Below are positions 44,212 through 56,071 of a stretch of DNA of 64,000 nucleotides, piece after piece (the first letter of the stretch is position 1; every line of letters begins with the position of its first letter). The stretch lies in contig JAFUTX010000031.1 of NCBI GenBank assembly GCA_017484065.1, positions 34,581 through 98,580 of the forward strand. The letters run 5' to 3'. The position numbers and the translations under genes were made by a program. The notes under the pieces were generated by a model. The model ran no database searches. It saw nothing but the letters and a program-made list of their open reading frames with translations, and was not told the origin of the DNA. The stretch comes from Bacilli bacterium. Lineage in GTDB: Bacteria; Bacillota_I; Bacilli_A; RF39; UBA660.

Positions 44212-45309
44212 ATGTTATACATAGTCATTAGTTTATTAGTTATAATAATTATCCTTTTAATAATACTTTTATTAAGAAAAAATGGTAGTATAGAGCTTAC
44301 TGATCGAATGGGTAGATTAGAGACCAATATGATTAAAGAAATAGCTGATTTTAAATTAAATTTTACTAGTGATTTACGAAAAGATTTTGACAATATGAAT
44401 GATAGAGTAGATGCTAGACTTAAATTAATGGATGCTCGAGTTAGTGAAAGATTAGACCAAAATTATGAAAAAACTAATAGAACTTTTAATAGTGTTTTAG
44501 AACGTTTATCTAAAATAGATGAAGCTCAAAAAAAGATAGATGGTTTATCTACTGATATTGTTTCTTTACAAAGTGTATTAACCGATAAAAAGACCAGGGG
44601 AATATTTGGTGAAGTTAATCTTAATTATATATTAAATAATGTATTTGGTGATAAATCTAATGGTATATATGATTTACAACATAAATTAAGTAATGGCTAC
44701 ATAGCTGATGCTATTCTTTATGCTCCGGATCCTTTAGGGACTATTGTCATAGATAGTAAATTTCCTTTAGAAAACTATCAAAGGATGATTGATAGAACTT
44801 TATCTAAAGAAGCCAGAGAACTAGCTGAAAAAAATTTTAAATTAGATGTTAAAAAACACATTGATGCTATTAGTAATAAATATATAGTACCTGGGGAAAC
44901 TGCTAATGAAGCTATTATGTTTTTACCAGCTGAAGCTATATTTGCGGAAATAAATGCTTATCATAGTGATATTTTAGCATATGCTTATAATAAAAAGGTA
45001 TGGATTACTGGACCAACTACCTTAATGAGTACACTATCAATTATTAGTATGATTCTTAAAAATATGGAAAGAGATAAATATGCCCAAGTAATTCATGATG
45101 AATTAAATAAGCTATCACAAGAATTTGCAAGATATAAAGAACGTTGGGATAGGTTATCAAGAAATATTGACACTGTAAATAAAAGTGTTAAAGAATTACA
45201 CACTACTAGTGAAAAGATTACAAAAAGGTTTGATAGTATAAATAAAGTGGATATGAATAATCTGATTGAATATAATGATGAATTATTATTAAATGATGAA
45301 ATAGAGTAG
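44212..45309 (+). CDS. rmuC: DNA recombination protein RmuC
   Basis: N-terminal TM, coiled coil, RmuC C-terminal domain. Confidence 0.8.
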   Translation: MLYIVISLLVIIIILLIILLLRKNGSIELTDRMGRLETNMIKEIADFKLNFTSDLRKDFDNMNDRVDARLKLMDARVSERLDQNYEKTNRTFNSVLERLSKIDEAQKKIDGLSTDIVSLQSVLTDKKTRGIFGEVNLNYILNNVFGDKSNGIYDLQHKLSNGYIADAILYAPDPLGTIVIDSKFPLENYQRMIDRTLSKEARELAEKNFKLDVKKHIDAISNKYIVPGETANEAIMFLPAEAIFAEINAYHSDILAYAYNKKVWITGPTTLMSTLSIISMILKNMERDKYAQVIHDELNKLSQEFARYKERWDRLSRNIDTVNKSVKELHTTSEKITKRFDSINKVDMNNLIEYNDELLLNDEIE

Positions 45310-45352
45310 TGAAAACTACTTTTTTCTATGAAAAAAGTACCTTACGGTACTT
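45305..45352. terminator. two adjacent hairpins between convergent rmuC and the glucosaminidase gene
   Basis: AGTAGT-gaaa-ACTACT plus T6, and AAGTACC-ttac-GGTACTT. Confidence 0.55.
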
Positions 45353-45977
45353 AAGCATTTTTAATTCTTTCGATATAATTATTAACTTTTCTAGCCCATT
45401 CAGTGCTTTCAGCATATTTATGATTCATTTTTTCTGGAGTGTCTAAACCATAAGCATAGTAATTTCTAGCTAAGTTAGATATAAATCTATCTATACCTTC
45501 TTCCATAGTAGAAAAACTTGCAAATGATCCACCATTACATCCAGGAGCACCTTTCATACCACCAACATTGTGGCAGTACTTAGTTAAGGAGCTACATGAA
45601 CCATTACCACAACCACTTTCAAGTAAAGTAATAGATACTGCTACATATGGATCAACTCCATATTCTAATGATTTACTTGCATATGTATAACCATAGTTAG
45701 TTAAATCACTTTTTAAAACTCTATTTAATTTATTGGTTAATTCTACTATAGTCATTCCATCATAAACTATCTTATTAGCTTCTAAATCTTCAATTATATT
45801 AGCATCATTCATTTTATAGGAAAATGATGTGTTACTTAATTTAGTATTATTTACAATTTTTTGATTTATTAATAAGCTCGAACTAGAATCAACTGTTAAA
45901 AATACTGTTAAAAGAATTAAAATCATTCCAAGATGTATAAAGTATTTAGGAATACTAATTATCTTCTTGTTTTTCAT
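45351..45977 (-). CDS. membrane-anchored glucosaminidase-domain (endo-beta-N-acetylglucosaminidase) peptidoglycan hydrolase
   Basis: YVAVSITLLESGCG glucosaminidase motif. Confidence 0.7.
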   Translation of the reverse strand: MKNKKIISIPKYFIHLGMILILLTVFLTVDSSSSLLINQKIVNNTKLSNTSFSYKMNDANIIEDLEANKIVYDGMTIVELTNKLNRVLKSDLTNYGYTYASKSLEYGVDPYVAVSITLLESGCGNGSCSSLTKYCHNVGGMKGAPGCNGGSFASFSTMEEGIDRFISNLARNYYAYGLDTPEKMNHKYAESTEWARKVNNYIERIKNA

Positions 45978-47214
45978 CTTCTATCACCTTATTAAACTCT
46001 TTTGCTAATGTTCCATTTTTATATAAAGACATATAAGCTTTATGATTAATAATTAAATCATATTCACCTATGAATTCATATAATTTAGGATTAAATCCAA
46101 TTTTAAATTGGTTTAAACCATGATATGGACTTTCTTTACTGAAATCCCCTGTAATTCCATTTAAATCAGCAAAAGCAAATTTATCTTTATAATATTCTAA
46201 TATTTTATAATATAAGAAATGATTTGGATTAAATGAACCATAGTTTTTATCAAAACCACTAATTACTATATTAATGCGATTATGATGTTTCATAACTAAT
46301 GCTCCAGCTATATAGGTTTTAGCAAATTGGTTCATTCCTTTAGTAGCTAATGTTATATCATTTTTGTATGCTGCTAAAGCTTTATCTGAATTCATTTTCT
46401 TATTTACTAAATGAGGATTGTTACTACGAGATAACATAATGTTTAGATTATTATTTTTTTCTTCTTCAATAGAGTACGCTTCTCTTGAATTTAACATAAA
46501 ATCATTATAGTCTAAATTAACTAAGAATAAATCTATATTATCAAATTTATTAAATATATTATAATAATCTTTATAGTATATTACATCTTTATTCTTTTTA
46601 TCCTTAATAAACTCATATAGGATATCGATACCACGACGATCACTTATTTCAAAGTGTAATCCTTTTCTAGTAGCTTTTTTTACTTTATTTCTTGTATTTT
46701 TACTAATACTATTAATATTAAATTCTTTTAATGGAATAATAGCATTAAATCTAGGAAATAAAGATTCAAAATATAAGTTATCTTTTAATTTTAAGTAATC
46801 CATTTGTAATAAATAATCTTTAATTCTAATGTTAGAATTATAAGATATTTCATGAGTTTTAGGATTTATTTCTCCAATTGCTATTTCTGGATTTATTTTA
46901 ATAAAAGCAAAATTTTTATGCTTGTAGTATTCTTTTAAATCATTGGTGAAGTTTCTTAATAAATTTAAGTCATAGTAATCTATTAAAAAACCTTTAGGAG
47001 CATAACCATATTTTGAAAACATGGATATTTTTTTATAAAGAATAAGAGTAGCTGCTTTAATATTATTGTTATCATCTAGATAACCAATTAAGTCATATTC
47101 AAACCCGTTTTCAGCCATTAATAGGGCATAGTTTGAACTTTGATAATAATTCCCTAGTGGATGATTAATAGCATAGTTATCAAATTGGGGAATTGTTAAT
47201 TCTACTATTCTCAA
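45955..47214 (-). CDS. FemAB-family peptidoglycan cross-bridge aminoacyl/peptidyl transferase
   Basis: 419-aa FemABX-like N-terminus MRIVELTIPQFDNYAINHPLGNYYQSSNYALL; overlaps the downstream glucosaminidase gene by 23 nt. Confidence 0.8.
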   Translation of the reverse strand: MRIVELTIPQFDNYAINHPLGNYYQSSNYALLMAENGFEYDLIGYLDDNNNIKAATLILYKKISMFSKYGYAPKGFLIDYYDLNLLRNFTNDLKEYYKHKNFAFIKINPEIAIGEINPKTHEISYNSNIRIKDYLLQMDYLKLKDNLYFESLFPRFNAIIPLKEFNINSISKNTRNKVKKATRKGLHFEISDRRGIDILYEFIKDKKNKDVIYYKDYYNIFNKFDNIDLFLVNLDYNDFMLNSREAYSIEEEKNNNLNIMLSRSNNPHLVNKKMNSDKALAAYKNDITLATKGMNQFAKTYIAGALVMKHHNRINIVISGFDKNYGSFNPNHFLYYKILEYYKDKFAFADLNGITGDFSKESPYHGLNQFKIGFNPKLYEFIGEYDLIINHKAYMSLYKNGTLAKEFNKVIEDEKQEDN

Positions 47215-47293
47215 AACATTTTCCTCCTCATTAGTACATAATTATACCATAAAATAGGATAAATTTCAAATCGAGGGCACTTGTATACGTATT

Positions 47294-48856
47294 TTAACTA
47301 TTTTTTAATACCGCATGAACTACTAATCTAGTGTTATTATAACTACATGTCGATAGGGTAAGTATCTTATCATCATTACCAACTTGGGCATCAAATTTAG
47401 CTATACTTCTATCTCTAAGCATTTTAATAAAACTTTGCCATTCTGTATTATTATCAAATTTTATTTGTAAATAATCACTAGTTTTAGGAATCTTATATGT
47501 ACTAAATATTTCAAATTCATAAGTATCATATAAAGTACTTAATGTAATAATCAAATTATCTTTATTAGTATACCATTTCTTTTCTTGCATTTTATATAAA
47601 GTACCAAACATAATACCACTATAATATCTATTATGACCATAAAGAATAGTGTTTTTATCTAAATCAATAGTATTATTACGGTAATCCATGAATATCCAAC
47701 CATTTTGATCTTCTTCATCATTAAAATTATGTTTAAGATAGTAATCATTATCTACTGTTTGTAGTACTGAATAGTCAATGTTAGTATTTTTTACATTCAC
47801 CCATGCTACAGTATTAGGATTAATACTTAATAATGATGCTATATATGGATTAGTAATTACTTTATCATTATTATTACTTGGTTCAGTAGGAATTACATTA
47901 TTCTTTTCATCTTCTTTTATTTTTTTGCTAATATTCTCTTGTATTTTAGTTACTTCCTTCATAGAAGTATAATTAGTAATAAGTATATAACCAGATACAA
48001 AGACAATTAAAGAGAATATAATAAAACCACATATTTTTAAAATATTTACAAGCAATTGATTAAATACATTATTTTTTAAATATTCATTAGAGTATTTTAA
48101 ACCAAAAGATATTCTATATCTTCTTTTATATTTACGGTTTATTTTCTTTAAATATTCGACAGTTTTTTCGTTAGTAATATTACTATGTATTACTATTTTT
48201 ATGTTACTAACTTTATTACTTTTTAATATATTTACTATATAATCAATATCATCTTTATCAGCTTTGTTTATGTGAATAGTTTGTAAATATCTATTAATTT
48301 TAAAGAATGTATTAATATCTTCTTTTTCATCTTTATTAAGAGGAAATCTTATTCTTATAGATAATTTATAATAGATTGTACTAAATTCATTTAAGTTATT
48401 TCCTTGCATGAAATCACTAGTAAAGAATAGTTCTATTCTTGATTTAACAATAATTCCATTTTTATCTAATAAATCAATCATAAAAGTAGGTACGTTATAA
48501 CAATTTAAATATTTTATAAATTTGTTTTTAACAATTTTTTCACATATTTCATATGGTAATGATACATCTTCAAGTAAACATAAATGTTCAATCAATGGGT
48601 TATTTTTTATAACACTTAAAACAAGTAAAGCTAAGTCATTAACTTCAACATTTACTTTAGTTATATTTTTTTCTTTACATAACTCTTTTATGAATAAACT
48701 AACTATTTTAGTATTATTAACTATATATTCATCTGTAAATAACAATTTGTTATTATTTATTACATTAGTATTGAGCATTTTAGTTTCATCGGTCTTAACA
48801 TTATTATAAGAAAATATAAGAGTATTATTGTTAATAGTAATTAAAACTTTTTTCAT
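47294..48856 (-). CDS. class B sortase catalytic domain fused to a novel ~265-aa N-terminal cytoplasmic domain, single TM between them
   Basis: C-terminal half resembles the SrtB catalytic domain (NPY..SLL...NIDY..L...YYL..NF, NTILYGHN, TLSTC, R in TRLVVHA); the N-terminal 265 aa matches no family I recognise. Confidence 0.8.
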   Translation of the reverse strand: MKKVLITINNNTLIFSYNNVKTDETKMLNTNVINNNKLLFTDEYIVNNTKIVSLFIKELCKEKNITKVNVEVNDLALLVLSVIKNNPLIEHLCLLEDVSLPYEICEKIVKNKFIKYLNCYNVPTFMIDLLDKNGIIVKSRIELFFTSDFMQGNNLNEFSTIYYKLSIRIRFPLNKDEKEDINTFFKINRYLQTIHINKADKDDIDYIVNILKSNKVSNIKIVIHSNITNEKTVEYLKKINRKYKRRYRISFGLKYSNEYLKNNVFNQLLVNILKICGFIIFSLIVFVSGYILITNYTSMKEVTKIQENISKKIKEDEKNNVIPTEPSNNNDKVITNPYIASLLSINPNTVAWVNVKNTNIDYSVLQTVDNDYYLKHNFNDEEDQNGWIFMDYRNNTIDLDKNTILYGHNRYYSGIMFGTLYKMQEKKWYTNKDNLIITLSTLYDTYEFEIFSTYKIPKTSDYLQIKFDNNTEWQSFIKMLRDRSIAKFDAQVGNDDKILTLSTCSYNNTRLVVHAVLKNS

Positions 48857-48954
48857 ATAATCTCGACCTCACTATTTATTCTATATAGATTTTAACATAT
48901 TTTACATAGTTTTGGGAAAAAAATATATAAAAATACAAATCTTTTTATCTAATC

Positions 48955-48983
48955 TTGAAATTAATACAACCCTTTGTTATAAT
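48955..48983 (+). promoter_or_regulatory. sigma-A promoter TTGAAA-17-TATAAT for essC-esaB
   Basis: in the divergent intergenic region. Confidence 0.5.
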
Positions 48984-49013
48984 TATAGATAGTAGAATAT
49001 TGGGGTGAATCAT

Positions 49014-52000
49014 ATGAAGGTATTAATTATTAAAAATAATCAAATCATTAATTATGATTTGCCTTCTAAAATCTTTGGTAATTATTGGATTAAAGATACT
49101 GATTTAAATGGTAATGAAAGAAATCTAATAAATGTTGAAGAATATAATGGAAAATGGAAGATAAAAAGCAATAATGATTGTAAAATTATTTATAATAATA
49201 CTTATCAAGAAGCGGTTTATTTAGCTGAATATAGTTATTGTGAATTAGAAGTAAAAGGGGAAGTAGAACACTTTATACTTTATTGTTGTCCAGTTTATGA
49301 AAAATCTTATAATATTTATGCTATTAAAGGAACTAGAGTACTACTAGTAGGTAATGATTCATCTAACCATATTATTTATAAAAGTAATGATATAGCACGC
49401 CAACAAATAAAGTTAACAAGCAATAATGTTTTTTGGAACTTGCAAAATATTCAAGAGAATAGGAAAGTGTATGTTAATAACTTAGCAGTTACTAACAAAA
49501 ATCTAGTATATGGCGATATTATATTCTTAATGGGATTAAAAATAATTGTTTTAAACAATTATATATTAATAAATAATCCTAATAATTTAGTAGAGGTTAA
49601 TACTCAGAATCTTGAATTAATTAATTTAACAGAAGTTGAAGATAATCCTGAAGAAGATGATGATACATTAGAAGTTTATTCTAAAAATGATTATTATTAT
49701 CGTTCTCCTAGATTTAAAAGTAATATAGCTAAAGAAGATTTAACAATTGATCCTCCTCCTGGAGCTCAAAATAACAATCAACTACCTTTTTGGCTAGCTA
49801 TGGGTTCAATGATGGTTATGGGCATGCGTTCTGTATTTGGTTTGATGGATGTTATTAATAGTGTTAGTACTGGAAAAACTACTTGGGGCGACGCAATGCC
49901 TAGCTTACTTACTAATGGTTCAATGATTTTTGGGTCATTAATGATTCCAGTAATGACAAGAATGTATCAAAAAAAAGCAGCTAAAAAATACGAAAGAAAA
50001 AGACAAAAAAAATATAGTGATTATTTGGCAATGCAACGTAATGTTATTAGTAATATTATGAAAAAGCAAAAAGATATTTTACTTAATAATTATCCGTCAG
50101 TAGAAGAGTGCTATAACATAATAGTTAATCGTAAAAGAAATCTTTGGGAAAGAAAAATTGATAATGAAGACTTCTTAACATTGCGGGTAGGTTTAGGCAA
50201 TACTAAAGTAGAATTAGATTTAAAGTATCAAGAAAAGCATTTTTCGATGGATGAAGATAATTTACTTAATGATATGTATCGAATGACTGATGAATTACAA
50301 GAATTAAAAGATGTGCCAGTTACTATTTCTTTAACTGAAAAATTTGTATCAGCTATTCTTGGTAATAGCAACGTTATATCAAATTATTTAGAAACATTAA
50401 TTATTCAAATGATTACATATCATAGCTATGAAGATTTAAAAATAGTAGTTCTTACTGATGAAAAGAATGCTTATAAATATGAATACTTAAAAGTATTACC
50501 TCATTGTTGGAGTAATGATAAAAGCATTAGATTCTTTGGTACTAATAATGATGATATAAATAAAATATCAATGTATTTAATGAATGAATTTAAAGAACGT
50601 AAGTATCAAGATGAAGAAGAACAAAACTCTTCTAAAGAAGATGATTATAAGAGTTATTCACCGTACTACATGATTATTACAGATAATTTTGCTAATGCCA
50701 GAAAAGTAGAGATAATTAGAAATACTTTAGAACAAACAATTAATTATGGGTTTAGTTTGCTTATACTTGCTAATAGATTAAATGAGTTACCTAATGAATG
50801 TACGTCTTTCTTAAATATCGATACTAACATATCAGGTATGATTGAAAATGATTTATCATTAGAAAGTCAAAAGCCGTTTAAAGCTGATTTTAATAGTAAG
50901 GTAAATATTTATGAATGTGCTACTAGACTTGCTAATATACCAATAGAATTATCTAATGGTAGCTATGATTTACCTAATATGATTAGTTTTTTAGAAATGT
51001 ATAATGTTGGTAATGTTGATCAATTAAACTCTATGGAACGTTGGAAAAACAATAATCCTGTTGCATCTCTTCAAGTTCCAGTTGGAGTTAACGAAAGTGG
51101 CGATTTATTCAAACTAGATTTACATGAAAAAGCTCATGGCCCTCATGGTTTAATTGCAGGTACTACAGGTAGTGGTAAATCAGAATTTATTATTACTTAT
51201 ATTTTAAGCCTTGCTGTTAATTATCATCCTTATGAAGTTAGTTTTGTTTTAATTGACTACAAAGGTGGAGGATTAGCTGGGGCTTTTGAAAATAAAGATA
51301 CTGGTGTAAAATTACCACACTTAGCAGGTACAATTACTAACTTGGATATCACTGAGATTAATCGTTCGCTAGCTAGTATAGAAAGTGAACTTAAAAGACG
51401 TCAAAGAATATTTAATGAAGCTCGTGATAAACTAGAAGAAAGTACAATAGATATTTATAAATATCAAAGATATTATCGTGAAGGTTTAGTTACAGAACCA
51501 GTAAGTCATTTGTTTATTATAAGTGATGAGTTTGCTGAATTAAAAGCACAACAACCTGAGTTTATGGCACAACTTATACAAACAGCTCGTATTGGTCGTA
51601 GTTTAGGAGTACACTTAATTTTAGCAACACAAAAACCAAGTGGGGTTGTAGATGATCAAATATGGTCTAACTCTAAATTTAGAGTATGTTTAAAAGTTCA
51701 AGATAAATCAGATAGTAATGACATGATTAAATGCCCAGACGCAGCAAAACTATCAAATCCTGGTAGATTCTATTTACAAGTAGGATATAATGAGTTGTTT
51801 GCTTTAGGACAATCAGCATGGTGTGGAGCACCTTATTATGCAACTGATATGCGTAAAAAGACTATTGATGCTAATCTTAATTTCTTAGATACAGTTGGAG
51901 AAGTAGTAAAAAGTGTTGATCGTCAAAAAGGTGTAAACGCTGTAAAAGCAGATGGAGAAGAATTACCTCATATTGTCAAATATTTGACAAAGATAGCTAA

Positions 52001-53642
52001 GGCAGAAAATATTAATATTAGACCTTTATGGATTGATAGAATACCTGATGTAATCTTTATTGATCAGTTAAAAGAAAAATACAATTATAAACCTGAGAGA
52101 TTAAAACTTAATCCTATAATTGGTGAATATGATGATCCACATAATCAAAGACAAGATATTCTTACATTACCAATAGAAGGTAATAGTGTTATTTATGGTA
52201 TTACTGGTAGTGGTAAAGATTTACTTATTAATTCAATTATATATTCTTGTGTAACTAATCATTCAGTAGATGAAATTAATTTCTACTTACTAGATTTTGG
52301 CTCTGAAACACTTAGAATGTTTAAAAATATTCCACATGTTGGAGATGTATTATTCTCAAATGATGCTGATAAAATAGACAATCTATTTAAAATGTTAAAA
52401 GAAGAATGTGAAATAAGAAAGAATCTATTTGCTGATTATAATGGTAGTTATGAATATTATTGTAATAATAGTGGTAATGTGATTCCAAAAATTGTTGTAA
52501 TCTTCAATGCCTTTGAAGCATTTACAGAATTATTCCCAGATTATAATGATATCTTAGTTACATTAACTAGAGAAGCTACTAGATATGGAATATATTTCAT
52601 AATAAGTACAAGTGGTACTAATTCAATTCGTTATAAATTAGCTGCCAACTTCACACAAAGTATTGCTTTACAATTAAATGATAAGAGTGATTATACATCA
52701 GTTCTAGGAAATACTGGCGGAGTTCTTCCAAGTAAAATATATGGTCGTGGAGTAATTAATCTAAATGGTGGTTACTATGAGTTCCAAACTGCATACATGT
52801 ATGAAAGAGATAAAACTTTAGAATTTGTTAATGCTTTATCTAAAAAACTTAACGAAGTTTATAAACATCGTGCTAAAAAGATCCCAGTATTACCTGAGGT
52901 AGTAACTATTGAAGAAATAGAAAGTGAAATAAATACACTAGATAATGTACCAATTGGTATACGTAAAGATGACTTAGTAATAGAAACATTTGACTTTGAT
53001 AGTAAATTTGTTACTAATATTGCAAGTCAAGATATTGAAGCTTTTACACCATTTGTACCATCATTAATTAATTTATTATGTACTAAATATAAGAATAAAA
53101 TATCTATATTAGATGCTGCTGGTATATTTAAGAAGAATAAATTCACTTGTGATTATGTATCAAGTGGCTTTAATAAATACTTTGATAGTTTAGAAGCTAC
53201 TATAAATGAGTTAGACAAAGAGGCTAGTAGCAAAGGATATAGTGATGATTATTTAAATACATTTGAAAAAAGATTTATCATAATTACGGGAATTCAAGAT
53301 TGGTCAGTTAATATGGGTGGTACTGAATTTGGTAAACGTTATGAAGAATTCTTAAATAAATGTAATAAATTAAAAGTAGTTAAAATTATTTATGTAGATA
53401 TGATTGATAAATTAAAGAAACTAGATTTTGAATCATGGTATAAAAACTTTAATGAAGCTAATCGTGCTATTTGGGTTGGTAGTGGACTAGGTGGACAATT
53501 TACTATTAAGTTAAATAAAAATCCAAGATATTTAAATGATCAAATTGATAATAATTATGGTTATACTATTAACAATGGTAATGTATCTACATTAGTTAAA
53601 TTACTTGATGACCAGCCTAAAAGTGGTATGGACACATTATAG
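49014..53642 (+). CDS. essC: type VII secretion system FtsK/SpoIIIE-family ATPase EssC
   Basis: N-terminal FHA-like region, two TM helices, three FtsK-like ATPase domains (D1 Walker A GTTGSGKSEF); ATG at 49014 with GGGGTGA RBS. Confidence 0.9.
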   Translation: MKVLIIKNNQIINYDLPSKIFGNYWIKDTDLNGNERNLINVEEYNGKWKIKSNNDCKIIYNNTYQEAVYLAEYSYCELEVKGEVEHFILYCCPVYEKSYNIYAIKGTRVLLVGNDSSNHIIYKSNDIARQQIKLTSNNVFWNLQNIQENRKVYVNNLAVTNKNLVYGDIIFLMGLKIIVLNNYILINNPNNLVEVNTQNLELINLTEVEDNPEEDDDTLEVYSKNDYYYRSPRFKSNIAKEDLTIDPPPGAQNNNQLPFWLAMGSMMVMGMRSVFGLMDVINSVSTGKTTWGDAMPSLLTNGSMIFGSLMIPVMTRMYQKKAAKKYERKRQKKYSDYLAMQRNVISNIMKKQKDILLNNYPSVEECYNIIVNRKRNLWERKIDNEDFLTLRVGLGNTKVELDLKYQEKHFSMDEDNLLNDMYRMTDELQELKDVPVTISLTEKFVSAILGNSNVISNYLETLIIQMITYHSYEDLKIVVLTDEKNAYKYEYLKVLPHCWSNDKSIRFFGTNNDDINKISMYLMNEFKERKYQDEEEQNSSKEDDYKSYSPYYMIITDNFANARKVEIIRNTLEQTINYGFSLLILANRLNELPNECTSFLNIDTNISGMIENDLSLESQKPFKADFNSKVNIYECATRLANIPIELSNGSYDLPNMISFLEMYNVGNVDQLNSMERWKNNNPVASLQVPVGVNESGDLFKLDLHEKAHGPHGLIAGTTGSGKSEFIITYILSLAVNYHPYEVSFVLIDYKGGGLAGAFENKDTGVKLPHLAGTITNLDITEINRSLASIESELKRRQRIFNEARDKLEESTIDIYKYQRYYREGLVTEPVSHLFIISDEFAELKAQQPEFMAQLIQTARIGRSLGVHLILATQKPSGVVDDQIWSNSKFRVCLKVQDKSDSNDMIKCPDAAKLSNPGRFYLQVGYNELFALGQSAWCGAPYYATDMRKKTIDANLNFLDTVGEVVKSVDRQKGVNAVKADGEELPHIVKYLTKIAKAENINIRPLWIDRIPDVIFIDQLKEKYNYKPERLKLNPIIGEYDDPHNQRQDILTLPIEGNSVIYGITGSGKDLLINSIIYSCVTNHSVDEINFYLLDFGSETLRMFKNIPHVGDVLFSNDADKIDNLFKMLKEECEIRKNLFADYNGSYEYYCNNSGNVIPKIVVIFNAFEAFTELFPDYNDILVTLTREATRYGIYFIISTSGTNSIRYKLAANFTQSIALQLNDKSDYTSVLGNTGGVLPSKIYGRGVINLNGGYYEFQTAYMYERDKTLEFVNALSKKLNEVYKHRAKKIPVLPEVVTIEEIESEINTLDNVPIGIRKDDLVIETFDFDSKFVTNIASQDIEAFTPFVPSLINLLCTKYKNKISILDAAGIFKKNKFTCDYVSSGFNKYFDSLEATINELDKEASSKGYSDDYLNTFEKRFIIITGIQDWSVNMGGTEFGKRYEEFLNKCNKLKVVKIIYVDMIDKLKKLDFESWYKNFNEANRAIWVGSGLGGQFTIKLNKNPRYLNDQIDNNYGYTINNGNVSTLVKLLDDQPKSGMDTL

Positions 53643-53656
53643 TTAGTGAGGCGTTT

Positions 53657-53908
53657 ATGAATAAAGTACTAGTAGAATTATATGTTCCTAAAATAGAAAA
53701 AAAATATGAAATATTCTTACCAGTTTCTAAACAAGTAAGAACCGTAATTAGATTATTAGTTAAGTCTATAAACGAACTTACTAATCAAGAATTTCCTTTA
53801 GATTATAAAGCAATTCTATGTGATAAATTTACTGGAAATATATTTGATTTAAATAAAACTATTAAAGAATTAGGAATAATGAATGGAGCTAAATTAATAT
53901 TAATTTAG
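53657..53908 (+). CDS. esaB: EsaB/YukD ubiquitin-like T7SS protein
   Basis: 83 aa, YukD-like pattern ending GAKLILI, immediately downstream of essC. Confidence 0.75.
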   Translation: MNKVLVELYVPKIEKKYEIFLPVSKQVRTVIRLLVKSINELTNQEFPLDYKAILCDKFTGNIFDLNKTIKELGIMNGAKLILI

Positions 53909-53967
53909 TTCTTTTTTTATTGTTTTTGTAAGTTTTAAAGTTATAATTTGTACTGTTAGTTAAAAAA

Positions 53968-53996
53968 TTGACAAAATATAAATATTATGATAATAT
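53968..53996 (+). promoter_or_regulatory. TTGACA-17-TAATAT promoter for the candidate antisense RNA, copy 1
   Basis: identical element at 54362-54390 in copy 2. Confidence 0.4.
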
Positions 53997-54002
53997 GTAT
54001 TT

Positions 54003-54101
54003 ATCAAAGAAATTTGAATAAAATAAAAAGAGGAACATTCAATTTCGTACGTTGAATGTCTACCTCAATATATTGAGTTAGACATTTCAGTTCATATTTT
54101 T
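54003..54101 (+). ncRNA. candidate cis-antisense antitoxin sRNA, copy 1, convergent with the toxin gene
   Basis: hairpins ACATTCAA..TTGAATGT and AATGTCTA-cCTCAATATATTGAGt-TAGACATT followed by a T-run; co-varying stems in copy 2. Confidence 0.3.
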
Positions 54102-54118
54102 AAATATGTTCTGAAGTG

Positions 54119-54232
54119 TCATTTTTTTATACTAATAATTATTAGTAATATTACAAAACCTAAGAAGGCTAAATGTAACACAAGGACAGAAAACTTAGAG
54201 ATAAGCTTTAAAATGAAAGATTTTGTTTTCAT
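54119..54232 (-). CDS. 37-aa hydrophobic type I toxin-like peptide (MKTKSFILKLISKFSVLVLHLAFLGFVILLIIISIKK)
   Basis: hand-translated from the minus strand; SD GGAAGGA lies inside hairpin ATCCTT-aatgg-AAGGAT; single TM then a KK tail; paralog in copy 2. Confidence 0.55.
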   Translation of the reverse strand: MKTKSFILKLISKFSVLVLHLAFLGFVILLIIISIKK

Positions 54233-54296
54233 TCAATAAACATCCTTCCATTAAGGATAAGAGGTAGACACCAACAACTGAATGATCCATATTGAC

Positions 54297-54325
54297 ATTA
54301 TATCAACTTCTATGATATTTATCAA
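54297..54325 (-). promoter_or_regulatory. minus-strand TTGATA-17-TATAAT promoter for the toxin mRNA, copy 1
   Basis: reverse complement of 54297-54325; conserved as 54679-54707 in copy 2. Confidence 0.45.
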
Positions 54326-54361
54326 TAACAAATATTACAAAATGTAATACTTGTTGGAAAA

Positions 54362-54390
54362 TTGACAAAATATAAATATTATGATAATAT
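54362..54390 (+). promoter_or_regulatory. TTGACA-17-TAATAT promoter for the candidate antisense RNA, copy 2
   Basis: identical to the copy 1 element. Confidence 0.4.
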
Positions 54391-54503
54391 GTATTTATCA
54401 AAGAAATTTGAATAAAATTAAAAAAGGAAGTATTCAGTATTCGTGTGCTGAATGCCTACCCTAATTAATGGTGCGACATTTAAGTCAAATACTTAAGTGC
54501 CTT

Positions 54504-54611
54504 TTATTTTGCTAAAAATATTAGCAGTATTACTAAGCCTAATAAGGCTAAATGTAATATTAGAGAGGAAACTAGCGAAATAAGTTTTAAAATAAAATTT
54601 GTTAGTTTCAT
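54504..54611 (-). CDS. 35-aa hydrophobic type I toxin-like peptide (MKLTNFILKLISLVSSLILHLALLGLVILLIFLAK)
   Basis: hand-translated; SD GAAAGGAAGGG lies inside perfect hairpin CCTTTCAT-tctag-ATGAAAGG; conservative substitutions relative to copy 1. Confidence 0.55.
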   Translation of the reverse strand: MKLTNFILKLISLVSSLILHLALLGLVILLIFLAK

Positions 54612-54678
54612 CTTAAACCCTTCCTTTCATCTAGAATGAAAGGGTAGACACTCAGCTACTAAATAATTCCATGTTGAC

Positions 54679-54707
54679 ATTATATCAATTTTTATGATGT
54701 TTATCAA
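54679..54707 (-). promoter_or_regulatory. minus-strand TTGATA-17-TATAAT promoter for the toxin mRNA, copy 2
   Basis: reverse complement gives TTGATA aacatcataaaaattga TATAAT. Confidence 0.45.
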
Positions 54708-54799
54708 CAGTAAATGTTGCAAAATGTAATACTTTTTAACCTTTACTTTTAGTATTTTAAGTGATAAAATACACTTAATTGATGAAGAAATTATCTAAG

Positions 54800-55010
54800 T
54801 AGTTATATTAAAAACTTAAAAGAGAATAGTAATCATGGCTGGAAGTTACTAAAGTAAATTTAATATAATGAATTTCAATAATGGAGTCAAATCGTTATAG
54901 AGCGTTAATCTAATAGAGTGCTAATTAATTTTAGAACAAAGGTGGTACCGCGGATTTAACAGTAATTCGTCCTTTATAAGGATAATTACTGTTTTTATAT
55001 TGGAAAGGAT
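54800..55010 (+). ncRNA. T-box riboswitch leader of pheS-pheT
   Basis: AGAGA stem I start, T-box sequence AAAGGTGGTACCGCGG at 54938-54953, terminator AACAGTAATT..AATTACTGTT plus TTTTAT at 54959-55000. Confidence 0.8.
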
Positions 55011-55018
55011 AGATAATA

Positions 55019-56071
55019 ATGAATGATAAGATTAAAACTTTAAAAGAAGAAATAGCTAAAAATATTCAAGAAGTAAAAGATGAAGTTAATCTAAATGTAC
55101 TTAAAGCTAAGTATTTAAGTAAAAAAGGTGAAATAGGAGAATTATCTAGTTATTTAAAAGAATTACCTTATGAAGAAAAGAAATCATTTGGAATGATGCT
55201 AAATGAATTAAAACAAGAAGTAACTAATCTATTTGAAGAAAAGAAAAAGAATATTGAAGAAGCTATTCTTAATAAAAAGTTAGCTAGTGAAAATATAGAT
55301 ATTACTTTACCTGCTACAAAAATTGAATTAGGAAAACCTAATATATTAGAAAAGCTAATTGAAGAAATAGAATCTGTTTTAATGAGCATGGGGTATGATG
55401 TAGTGGATGGACCGGAAATAGAAGAAGATAAGTTTAATTTTGAAATGCTTAATATACCTAAAGGTCATCCAGCTCGTGATGCTCAAGATACATTCTATGT
55501 AAAAGATGAAGAATACTTACTTCGTAGTCAAACATCTCCTGTTCAAGTTAGAACAATGTTACAAGCTAATGGCGATAAACCAATTAGAATGATTTGCCCA
55601 GGTAAAACTTATCGTAGAGATGATGATGATGCTACTCATTCACATCAATTTATGCAAATTGAAGGATTAGTTGTTGATAAAGATATAAGTTTATCTGATT
55701 TAAAAGGAACTATAGATATTGTTGTTAAAAAATTATTTGGTGAATCTATAGAAACTAGATTTAGACCAAGTTATTATCAATTTACTGAACCATCCGTTGA
55801 AGTTGATATCAGTTGTTTTAATTGTAAAGGTAAAGGCTGTAACATTTGTAAACAAACAGGTTGGATTACTGTAGCAGGAGCAGGTATTGTCCATCCTAAT
55901 GTATTAAGAAATGGTGGATATGATCCAAATGTTTGGAGTGGTTTTGCATTTGGTTTTGGAGCAGAGCGACTTGCAATGCTTAAATATGATATTAAAGATT
56001 GTCGTACTTTTTATAATAATGATTTAAGAGAGAATAAAATATTTGATAGAGAGGAGCCAACTAATGATTAG
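55019..56071 (+). CDS. pheS: phenylalanine--tRNA ligase alpha subunit
   Basis: class II motifs; 350 aa. Confidence 0.95.
   Translation: MNDKIKTLKEEIAKNIQEVKDEVNLNVLKAKYLSKKGEIGELSSYLKELPYEEKKSFGMMLNELKQEVTNLFEEKKKNIEEAILNKKLASENIDITLPATKIELGKPNILEKLIEEIESVLMSMGYDVVDGPEIEEDKFNFEMLNIPKGHPARDAQDTFYVKDEEYLLRSQTSPVQVRTMLQANGDKPIRMICPGKTYRRDDDDATHSHQFMQIEGLVVDKDISLSDLKGTIDIVVKKLFGESIETRFRPSYYQFTEPSVEVDISCFNCKGKGCNICKQTGWITVAGAGIVHPNVLRNGGYDPNVWSGFAFGFGAERLAMLKYDIKDCRTFYNNDLRENKIFDREEPTND

Follow-up and report, generated by a model that had tools for sequence, protein, structure and literature searches.

The gene at 47294..48856 on the minus strand of a 64-kb window (the whole stretch of contig JAFUTX010000031.1, from an uncultured Bacilli bacterium of a low-GC gut lineage, that was analyzed) encodes a class B sortase (SrtB) in which the enzyme is joined, through a membrane helix, to a large N-terminal domain predicted to lie in the cytoplasm. 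We are highly confident that this is a real SrtB carrying a folded cytoplasmic domain. On balance, and with appreciably less assurance, we also favor the whole reading, in which a working SrtB docks to envelope-assembly machinery through its cytoplasmic repeat domain. The enzyme is an ordinary SrtB; the conserved cytoplasmic module and its stand-alone relatives are uncharacterized. The gene and its parts are as follows.

47294..48856, minus strand: whole gene, N-domain / transmembrane (TM) helix / linker / class B sortase, 520 amino acids, from the list of open reading frames (ORFs) and translation; stop codon 47294-47296
48867..48870, minus strand: GAGG ribosome-binding site, 10 nucleotides 5' of the ATG, by direct sequence reading
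48059..48856, minus strand: cytoplasmic N-domain, residues 1-266; no library match, AlphaFold2 model, 213 homologous clusters
48056..48148, minus strand: basic stretch KKINRKYKRRYR (residues 237-248) and conserved juxtamembrane helix YSxEYxxKNxxxQ (residues 255-267), from family conservation and charge
47972..48055, minus strand: single TM anchor, residues 268-295, predicted N-in / C-out from a Kyte-Doolittle maximum of 2.64 and charge asymmetry
47852..47971, minus strand: variable extracellular linker, residues 296-335, of varying length and 30% mean identity
47297..47851, minus strand: class B sortase catalytic domain, residues 336-520, from TIGR03064, Pfam Sortase, and SrtB structures
47633-47635, minus strand: His408, catalytic residue in the YGHN motif
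47345-47347, minus strand: Cys504, catalytic residue in the TLSTC motif
47327-47329, minus strand: Arg510, catalytic residue in the TRLVVHA motif

The NCBIfam model TIGR03064 matched residues 272-511 with 173.8 bits, above its curated cutoff of 153.75, and Pfam Sortase matched residues 354-517 with 48.4 bits against a threshold of 26.6. Sequence matches to the solved SrtB structures of Bacillus anthracis, Listeria monocytogenes, Clostridioides difficile, and Staphylococcus aureus ranged from E=1e-36 to 1e-27. The columns of H408, C504, and R510 are at least 90% conserved across 57 family members, and the TLSTC and R(L/F)V(V/I)H motifs recur in nearly all full-length members. The score, the His-Cys-Arg triad with TLxTC, and the (predicted) N-terminal anchor that define class B membership (TIGR03064 / MEROPS C60B) are all present, and the protein is probably a functional class B sortase. 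The earlier note on this DNA had proposed a class B catalytic domain and quoted the motifs YGHN (His408), TLSTC (Cys504), and TRLVVHA (Arg510); the assignment is borne out, and every one of those motifs was found; its description of the gene left out nothing but the strand.

The fusion is equally genuine, the sortase being linked via the TM helix to a large cytoplasmic domain in one gene rather than two. The ORF, in a window of 25.7% G+C, runs uninterrupted from an ATG start. The identical 520-amino-acid protein is recorded on nine contigs (those displayed, from three sequencing runs, share the same gene order) and is already deposited as NCBI MBR1414131.1, "class B sortase [Bacilli bacterium]". 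A species-level scan, with one genome per species, gave 12 loci, all from gut metagenome-assembled genomes labeled uncultured Bacilli or "Mycoplasma sp." and sourced from rabbit, goat, mouse, and human. Eleven of the 12 hold an intact ORF for a 514-551-amino-acid orthologue with the identical N-domain/TM/linker/SrtB layout; the 12th runs off its contig. Four further fused genes were found on metagenome contigs by a scan with a three-sequence alignment of the stand-alone form described below, which retrieved fused forms only; a 13-sequence version of that alignment was too divergent. Both halves of the gene are under constraint, with mean pairwise identities of 53% for the N-domain and 61% for the catalytic domain, against 30% for the extracellular linker.

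The earlier note had allowed that a frameshift or misassembly might have joined two separate genes. This explanation, or that of a decaying pseudogene, draws on a single metagenomic homologue (locus L001, 4038-5575), in which one frameshift at ~5040 (…cccttttaac…) yields ORFs of 335 and 130 amino acids on a contig of ~5x coverage; that frameshift is probably a sequencing error, or else the mark of a recent pseudogene. The window ORF, by contrast, is unbroken and has a ribosome-binding site, there are four metagenomic counterparts and more than 50 full-length database members, and both halves are under constraint. The nine identical records and the 11 intact orthologues rule the artefact out, and we regard its probability as negligible.

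The protein has one strong hydrophobic segment, at residues 268-295, and, as the earlier note had described, a KR-rich stretch (KKINRKYKRRYR) lies ahead of it. The net charge is +4.6 in the 32 residues before this segment and -4.0 after it, and the direction of the asymmetry is identical in 68 of 68 family members. No N-terminal signal-peptide-like segment was found in the protein. The predicted topology is single pass (type II), N-in and C-out, with the SrtB domain outside and the N-domain inside, in agreement with the cytoplasmic location claimed before.

Residues 1-266 matched no Pfam, NCBIfam, or PDB sequence, a profile search of the PDB with the N-domain included. When 1.84 billion cluster representatives (clusters at 50% identity) were searched exhaustively with an HMMER profile, a family of 213 clusters emerged at E<=1e-3, of which 147 reached E<=1e-10. 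The domain mostly starts at residue 1 of a protein with a total length of 510-565 amino acids, and 55 of the 57 full-length family members carry a Pfam Sortase domain. A word-indexed search with the N-domain had returned three proteins only, versus the 213 HMMER clusters, and the same kind of search with the catalytic domain gave no full-length fused proteins among its top 120 matches. Since it missed almost the entire family, rarity claims resting on that search alone would be wrong, and the near-uniqueness of the N-domain that it suggested is overturned. The term "novel" in the earlier note was likewise an overstatement for a family of at least 213 clusters that includes complete stand-alone proteins and for a protein already deposited as a class B sortase.

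Three architectures occur in the family: fused, stand-alone, and mini. The stand-alone form consists of complete genes for 278-301 amino acids that specify the N-domain and a C-terminal TM segment, end at most about 20 residues past the membrane, and lack a sortase. Examples are P0140, P0052, P0065, P0070, P0098, and P0135, all with a stop codon within the contig and all unnamed in databases; stand-alone loci include L014 (6001-6855), L019 (6001-6861), L017, L018, L021, and L022. The mini form is an SrtB of 323-335 amino acids whose cytoplasmic part, of ~75 residues, matches profile positions 195-265 only; it was seen on many contigs and is represented by P0283 (L031, 6001-6984), P0242, P0247, P0260, and P0275. 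Eighty family members, stand-alone forms among them, could be aligned with the window protein from end to end and share with it the N-domain at the extreme N-terminus, the juxtamembrane helix (YSxEYxxKNxxKQ), and one TM segment.

The AlphaFold2 model of the N-domain, built from a multiple alignment of 81 sequences, has a mean predicted local distance difference test score (pLDDT) of 93.4 and a predicted template modeling score of 0.86, and it supersedes one from a four-sequence alignment (pLDDT 73). The modeled layout comprises an N-terminal beta unit (residues 1-41), a helix (49-63), and eight beta/alpha units (67-263) that repeat with a period of ~25-28 residues per beta strand and alpha helix. 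Fold comparison gave weak matches of the leucine-rich repeat (LRR) class. No Pfam LRR match was obtained in the window protein or in any of the 57 full-length members. A sequence link to the LRR_6 protein P0122, from a profile match, consisted of many small repeat matches and reached 10% probability in hhalign, and we keep it as a hint only. The N-domain is thus modeled as a beta/alpha-repeat, LRR-like fold without a close solved relative and outside the Pfam LRR families. The earlier statement that it could be assigned to no family holds insofar as no library annotates it; its predicted fold is nevertheless assignable in these terms.

The most conserved positions of the N-domain are T30, N31, F40, Y44, N48, C119, R140, S147, F149, N153, D180, F184, N188, L191, I194, Y255, and Y259, the last two in the juxtamembrane helix. 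They cluster in the N-terminal unit, the irregular fourth repeat, and an Asn-containing F..IN..L..I element. The N-domain is an autonomous, strongly conserved module that a likewise conserved juxtamembrane helix keeps at the membrane.

This conservation can also be read as the signature of a regulatory or oligomerization domain that senses a cytoplasmic cue (e.g., a cell wall precursor or growth state) or dimerizes, thereby switching the sortase across the membrane. The N-domain is nearly as conserved as the catalytic domain, and the cluster in the irregular repeat (R140, S147, F149, N153), along with a lower-confidence NTN loop (T30, N31), could be a ligand or partner site. However, a single TM segment followed by a 40-residue, poorly conserved linker of variable length would be a poor allosteric conduit, the domain matches no known ligand-binding or enzymatic family, and the stand-alone forms have nothing extracellular to regulate. 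We consider such a switch quite improbable.

Sortases are usually treated as extracellular enzymes with a token cytoplasmic stub, and a sortase specialist would find the domain surprising. Comparison with the canonical SrtBs of S. aureus, B. anthracis, and C. difficile, and with 270-300-amino-acid relatives in the same database, places it more precisely. The S. aureus and B. anthracis enzymes (PDB 1ng5, 1qwz, 1rz2, 2oqw) share TIGR03064 membership, the His/Cys/Arg residues with TLSTC, and the N-terminal anchor with the window protein. With its relatives they share an NP(Q/K/T)TG-type signal (as in NPQTN and NPKTG) and a substrate gene adjoining the sortase gene. They differ in having a short basic stub before the TM segment, as do the 270-300-amino-acid relatives P0224 and P0265, versus ~265 folded residues here. 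In a neighbor-joining tree of catalytic domains (a rough one, with no outgroup and no bootstrap), the sampled canonical short SrtBs fall mostly into one clade and the fused forms make up the remainder, within which the mini forms are nested along with two or three short ones. This nesting suggests that the long N-domain is old in an SrtB sub-lineage and has been occasionally reduced. The window protein belongs to this old sub-lineage, in which the folded domain replaces the short basic cytoplasmic stub.

As a side observation, locus L035 (5158-5988) encodes one of the short relatives, P0265, a canonical SrtB of 276 amino acids with a catalytic domain 49% identical, beside a Peptidase_S55 (SpoIVB-family) gene. 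L035 comes from run SRR12529381, of an accession series shared with the window's contigs, and SpoIIM is nearby on a longer contig, L034. Short and fused SrtBs may thus coexist in one community or even one genome.

C. difficile SrtB (CD2718; PDB 4ux7, 5gyj) is also a class B enzyme from a gut Firmicute, with a structure match of E=4e-30. It differs in lacking a large cytoplasmic domain and in having several dispersed substrates, whereas the window family has one tightly linked substrate gene at most loci. It recognizes (S/P)PxTG signals and is described as a general rather than haem-specific sortase (PMC8225981). The same source describes a haem-uptake role for staphylococcal SrtB. For the window type, that role finds no support in five scanned neighboring substrates, in which the anchor motif is the sole Pfam family.

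Enterococcus faecalis SrtA and SrtC are reportedly localized in foci via a positively charged cytoplasmic segment, a precedent for the cytoplasmic end of a sortase setting its position in the membrane. That segment consists of a few basic residues, as opposed to the 265-residue folded repeat domain here, which also occurs as an independent tail-anchored protein. For the N-domain itself, LRR domains of the ribonuclease inhibitor, SKP2, and tropomodulin type are among the closest known systems. LRRC8 volume-regulated anion channels have a cytoplasmic LRR domain that modulates or organizes a function performed in or across the membrane (PMC8440666). The likeness, a cytoplasmic LRR on a membrane protein, is one of architecture only, LRRC8 being a eukaryotic multi-pass channel without homology to the window protein.

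RF39 bacteria retain srtA/B and most peptidoglycan genes, and the study of their lineages that reported this is silent on a sortase architecture with a fused N-domain (PMC10868615). We found no description of the fused architecture in the literature searched on sortase cytoplasmic domains and N-terminal extensions, an absence that is no proof. For a family of more than 200 clusters, so far labeled "class B sortase" or left unnamed, a structural description now covers roughly half of every member protein. In addition, uncultured gut Bacilli, organisms known in other respects only through what their genomes imply, are seen to encode a dedicated NPxTG surface protein.

This surface protein is encoded next to the sortase gene in most relatives. 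In L001-L013 (13 of 13 loci), a protein of 180-237 amino acids is encoded divergently, ~100-200 nucleotides upstream of the sortase gene, and combines a signal peptide with a C-terminal sorting signal, a hydrophobic segment, and a basic tail (e.g., L002, 1247-1864; L011, 9135-9812). The signals read NPQTGS, NPKTGS, or NPTTGS, with variants TPDTGS, TPNTGN, and xTGY. In L027 and L028, a protein of 424 or 461 amino acids with ENPKTS or DNPKTG is encoded directly upstream on the same strand, and the mini-form loci have a divergent 276-amino-acid NPKTG protein (L031, 5063-5893). NP(Q/K/T)TG or NPKTS neighbors were seen in L001-L003, L007-L009, L011, L012, L027, L028, and L031-L033, and the variant TP(D/N)TG or xTGY signals in L004-L006, L010, and L013. 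No sorting-signal neighbor was seen in L029 or in L030, whose upstream sequence is short, so that the linkage of sortase and substrate holds in 15 of 17 fused-form loci and in three mini-form loci. The L003 substrate passes the Pfam Gram_pos_anchor threshold, and no other Pfam domain was found in the five substrates scanned. Several substrates have Cys-rich repeats, e.g., YYD(K/A)(D/N)GN...C in L028.

The window, as the earlier note had observed, holds no such protein: a signal scan of the 64 kb recovered no ORF with a C-terminal sorting signal, and tblastn with the substrates of 13 relatives was negative. A database search with the L002 substrate returned that protein alone. The window organism must therefore either carry its substrate gene in another part of the genome or have lost it. 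The substrate that the note called unknown remains so for the window itself, but the adjacent NPxT(G/S) proteins at L001-L013, L027, L028, and the mini-form loci provide it for the relatives.

Although the substrates' passenger domains are highly divergent, their cytoplasmic tails of 10-11 residues keep a motif to the final residue (e.g., RKKAKIYHV, KKNTKMYKI, RRHNKVYKI, RKQSKFPQSL, RKKNRFPQA, RKKQLFKQL). The motif can be written (R/K)(K/R)xx(K/R)-hydrophobic-(Y/F/P)-(H/K/Q)-(V/I/L/S/A). Such a tail is unusual, since most sorting signals end in a short basic stretch of a generic kind. The N-domain might accordingly be a receptor that binds the cytoplasmic C-terminal tail of the cognate sorting signal and so holds the precursor or licenses its cleavage. 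The tail conservation, the tight linkage of sortase and substrate genes, and the general tendency of LRR-like surfaces to bind peptides are all in line with this idea. Nonetheless, the stand-alone proteins have neither a sortase nor a nearby sorting-signal protein, and the mini SrtB has lost ~190 residues of the domain and still has a substrate with the same type of tail. Furthermore, the similarity of the tails may merely reflect common descent of the sorting signals, and tail type and sortase clade co-vary with phylogeny and are inseparable here. We thus judge a tail receptor unlikely.

Docking, the favored reading, draws on the architecture and on the genomic neighborhoods. In L027, the gene order is penicillin-binding protein (PBP; transpeptidase plus PASTA)-MraY-FtsW-substrate-sortase. 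FemAB adjoins the fused sortase in L028, where MurD is also nearby, and MurD is likewise near the sortase in L030. Both L003 and L011 have glucosaminidase homologues ~4 kb away from the fused sortase. Among the stand-alone forms, P0140 is divergent to mraZ-rsmH-(98 amino acids)-PBP/PASTA, and P0070 lies 14 nucleotides downstream of an LCP gene, in an LtaS-(203 amino acids)-LCP string. Other loci have unrelated neighbors, e.g., a P-type ATPase or pheST. The recurrence of cell-envelope biogenesis genes around both forms is, as a pattern of gene order, suggestive only.

We tentatively propose, with rather low confidence in this role taken by itself, that the N-domain places the enzyme by docking where peptidoglycan precursors are made or exported, or else at the divisome. 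In such a mechanism, and by analogy with established sortase biochemistry, Cys504 would attack the T-G bond of the NPxTG signal. The acyl-enzyme would be resolved by the amine of the lipid II cross-bridge, built by FemAB-type enzymes, to which the substrate would be transferred. Through protein-protein contacts, the cytoplasmic repeat domain would dock the sortase to the peptidoglycan-synthesis or division machinery on its cytoplasmic face, so that anchoring would occur where lipid II and the newly secreted substrate emerge. The stand-alone module would tie other envelope enzymes to the same cytoplasmic machinery. A further generalization, speculative and somewhat improbable as it stands, is that N-domain plus TM segment define an unrecognized family of cytoplasmic adaptors, tethered to the membrane in gut Bacilli with reduced genomes and coupling SrtB (fused) or LCP/PBP-type enzymes (stand-alone) to cytoplasmic peptidoglycan-precursor or divisome machinery. 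If true, such an adaptor family would imply inside-out spatial control of sortase anchoring, which is not described for any sortase.

How Gram-positive bacteria position their sortases with respect to the sites of secretion and the supply of lipid II is an open question, on which a folded cytoplasmic domain would offer a handle. The occurrence of the same domain as a stand-alone, tail-anchored protein beside division, cell wall, and LCP genes strengthens that handle. Docking predicts a specific cytoplasmic binding partner that could be isolated. The function of the domain is inferred only, and the hosts are uncultured, which restricts tests to heterologous systems.

In the window itself, the genes downstream of the sortase fit the envelope theme.

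45955..47214, minus strand: FemAB-family peptidyltransferase gene, 79 nucleotides downstream of the sortase gene (Pfam FemAB, 2.9e-50)
45351..45977, minus strand: gene for a peptidoglycan hydrolase with a glucosaminidase domain, overlapping the FemAB gene by 23 nucleotides (Pfam Glucosaminidase, 6.6e-11)
45335..45352, no strand assigned: bidirectional terminator-like hairpin that ends the sortase-FemAB-glucosaminidase string (hairpin scan)

The hairpin is the sole terminator-like one in 45200-49100; scored once per strand, it accounts for two sites versus 0.2 expected in shuffled sequences. The gap between the sortase and FemAB genes has no terminator and contains a promoter-like site. Because the count of promoter-like sites in this AT-rich DNA does not exceed the shuffled expectation, it is the absence of a terminator that suggests an operon, in which sortase and FemAB may be cotranscribed. 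The lipid II cross-bridge attacked by sortases is the product of FemAB-family enzymes, and a functional link between sortase and FemAB might be inferred from this. As to the earlier suggestion of FemAB as a partner, the adjacency recurs once (L028), within the wider theme of peptidoglycan genes. VanY lies ~5 kb from the sortase gene in the window.

Divergently from the sortase gene, the window holds the other partner proposed in the earlier note.

49005-53908, divergent to the sortase gene: EssC (1,545 amino acids, FHA-like N-terminus; TIGR03928, 1051 bits) and a weak YukD-like gene of 83 amino acids

Docking of the N-domain to the type VII secretion ATPase EssC (or to YukD/EsaB) would couple type VII secretion to anchoring. 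The adjacency is real in this organism, since EssC and YukD lie beside the sortase on other contigs of it as well. Nevertheless, neither gene occurs at any of the 16 other fused-form loci or at the mini-form loci. The closest orthologue, L002 (68.5% identical), has the substrate gene and pheT as the neighbors of its sortase gene, and neither EssC nor YukD. EssC in the window occupies the divergent position where relatives have the substrate gene, a placement consistent with a rearrangement or insertion. The presence of EssC/YukD there looks like a lineage-specific rearrangement, judging from gene order, rather than a functional partnership. None of EssB, EsaA, EssA, or WXG100 was recognized among the scanned neighbor genes of EssC/YukD, and the conserved association with EssC or the type VII secretion system (T7SSb) that would mark an accessory component of that system was not found. 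Type VII substrates are not known to carry sorting signals. Docking to the adjacent EssC thus lacks comparative support; we rejected the EssC/YukD partnership on synteny and deem it very improbable.

Two further loci merit brief mention. In L029 (10974-13218), the fused SrtB lies ~1.3 kb from a second sortase, of 225 amino acids, and a 527-amino-acid SpaA-fold protein with VPKTG, a pilin-like pair. Upstream in the same locus are a putative PP2C-phosphatase-like ORF and a putative kinase-like ORF of 583 amino acids, both identified by eye.

Finally, a 1.1-kb gene-free gap separates the YukD-like gene from pheS in the window (53908-55019), and contigs from other samples break there. It contains a T-box leader at 54776-54977 (67.8 bits, E=2.8e-14, under the Rfam gathering score of 93) and two copies of a ~390-nucleotide direct repeat (53941-54035 and 54335-54429, 88%; 54286-54355 and 54668-54737, 86%). 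On the plus strand, both copies carry a near-consensus TTGACA-17-TATAAT promoter, and on the minus strand a hydrophobic mini-ORF of 35-37 amino acids (54119-54232 and 54504-54611). The arrangement could represent a pair resembling type I toxin-antitoxin systems, or the mini-ORFs could encode small membrane peptides.

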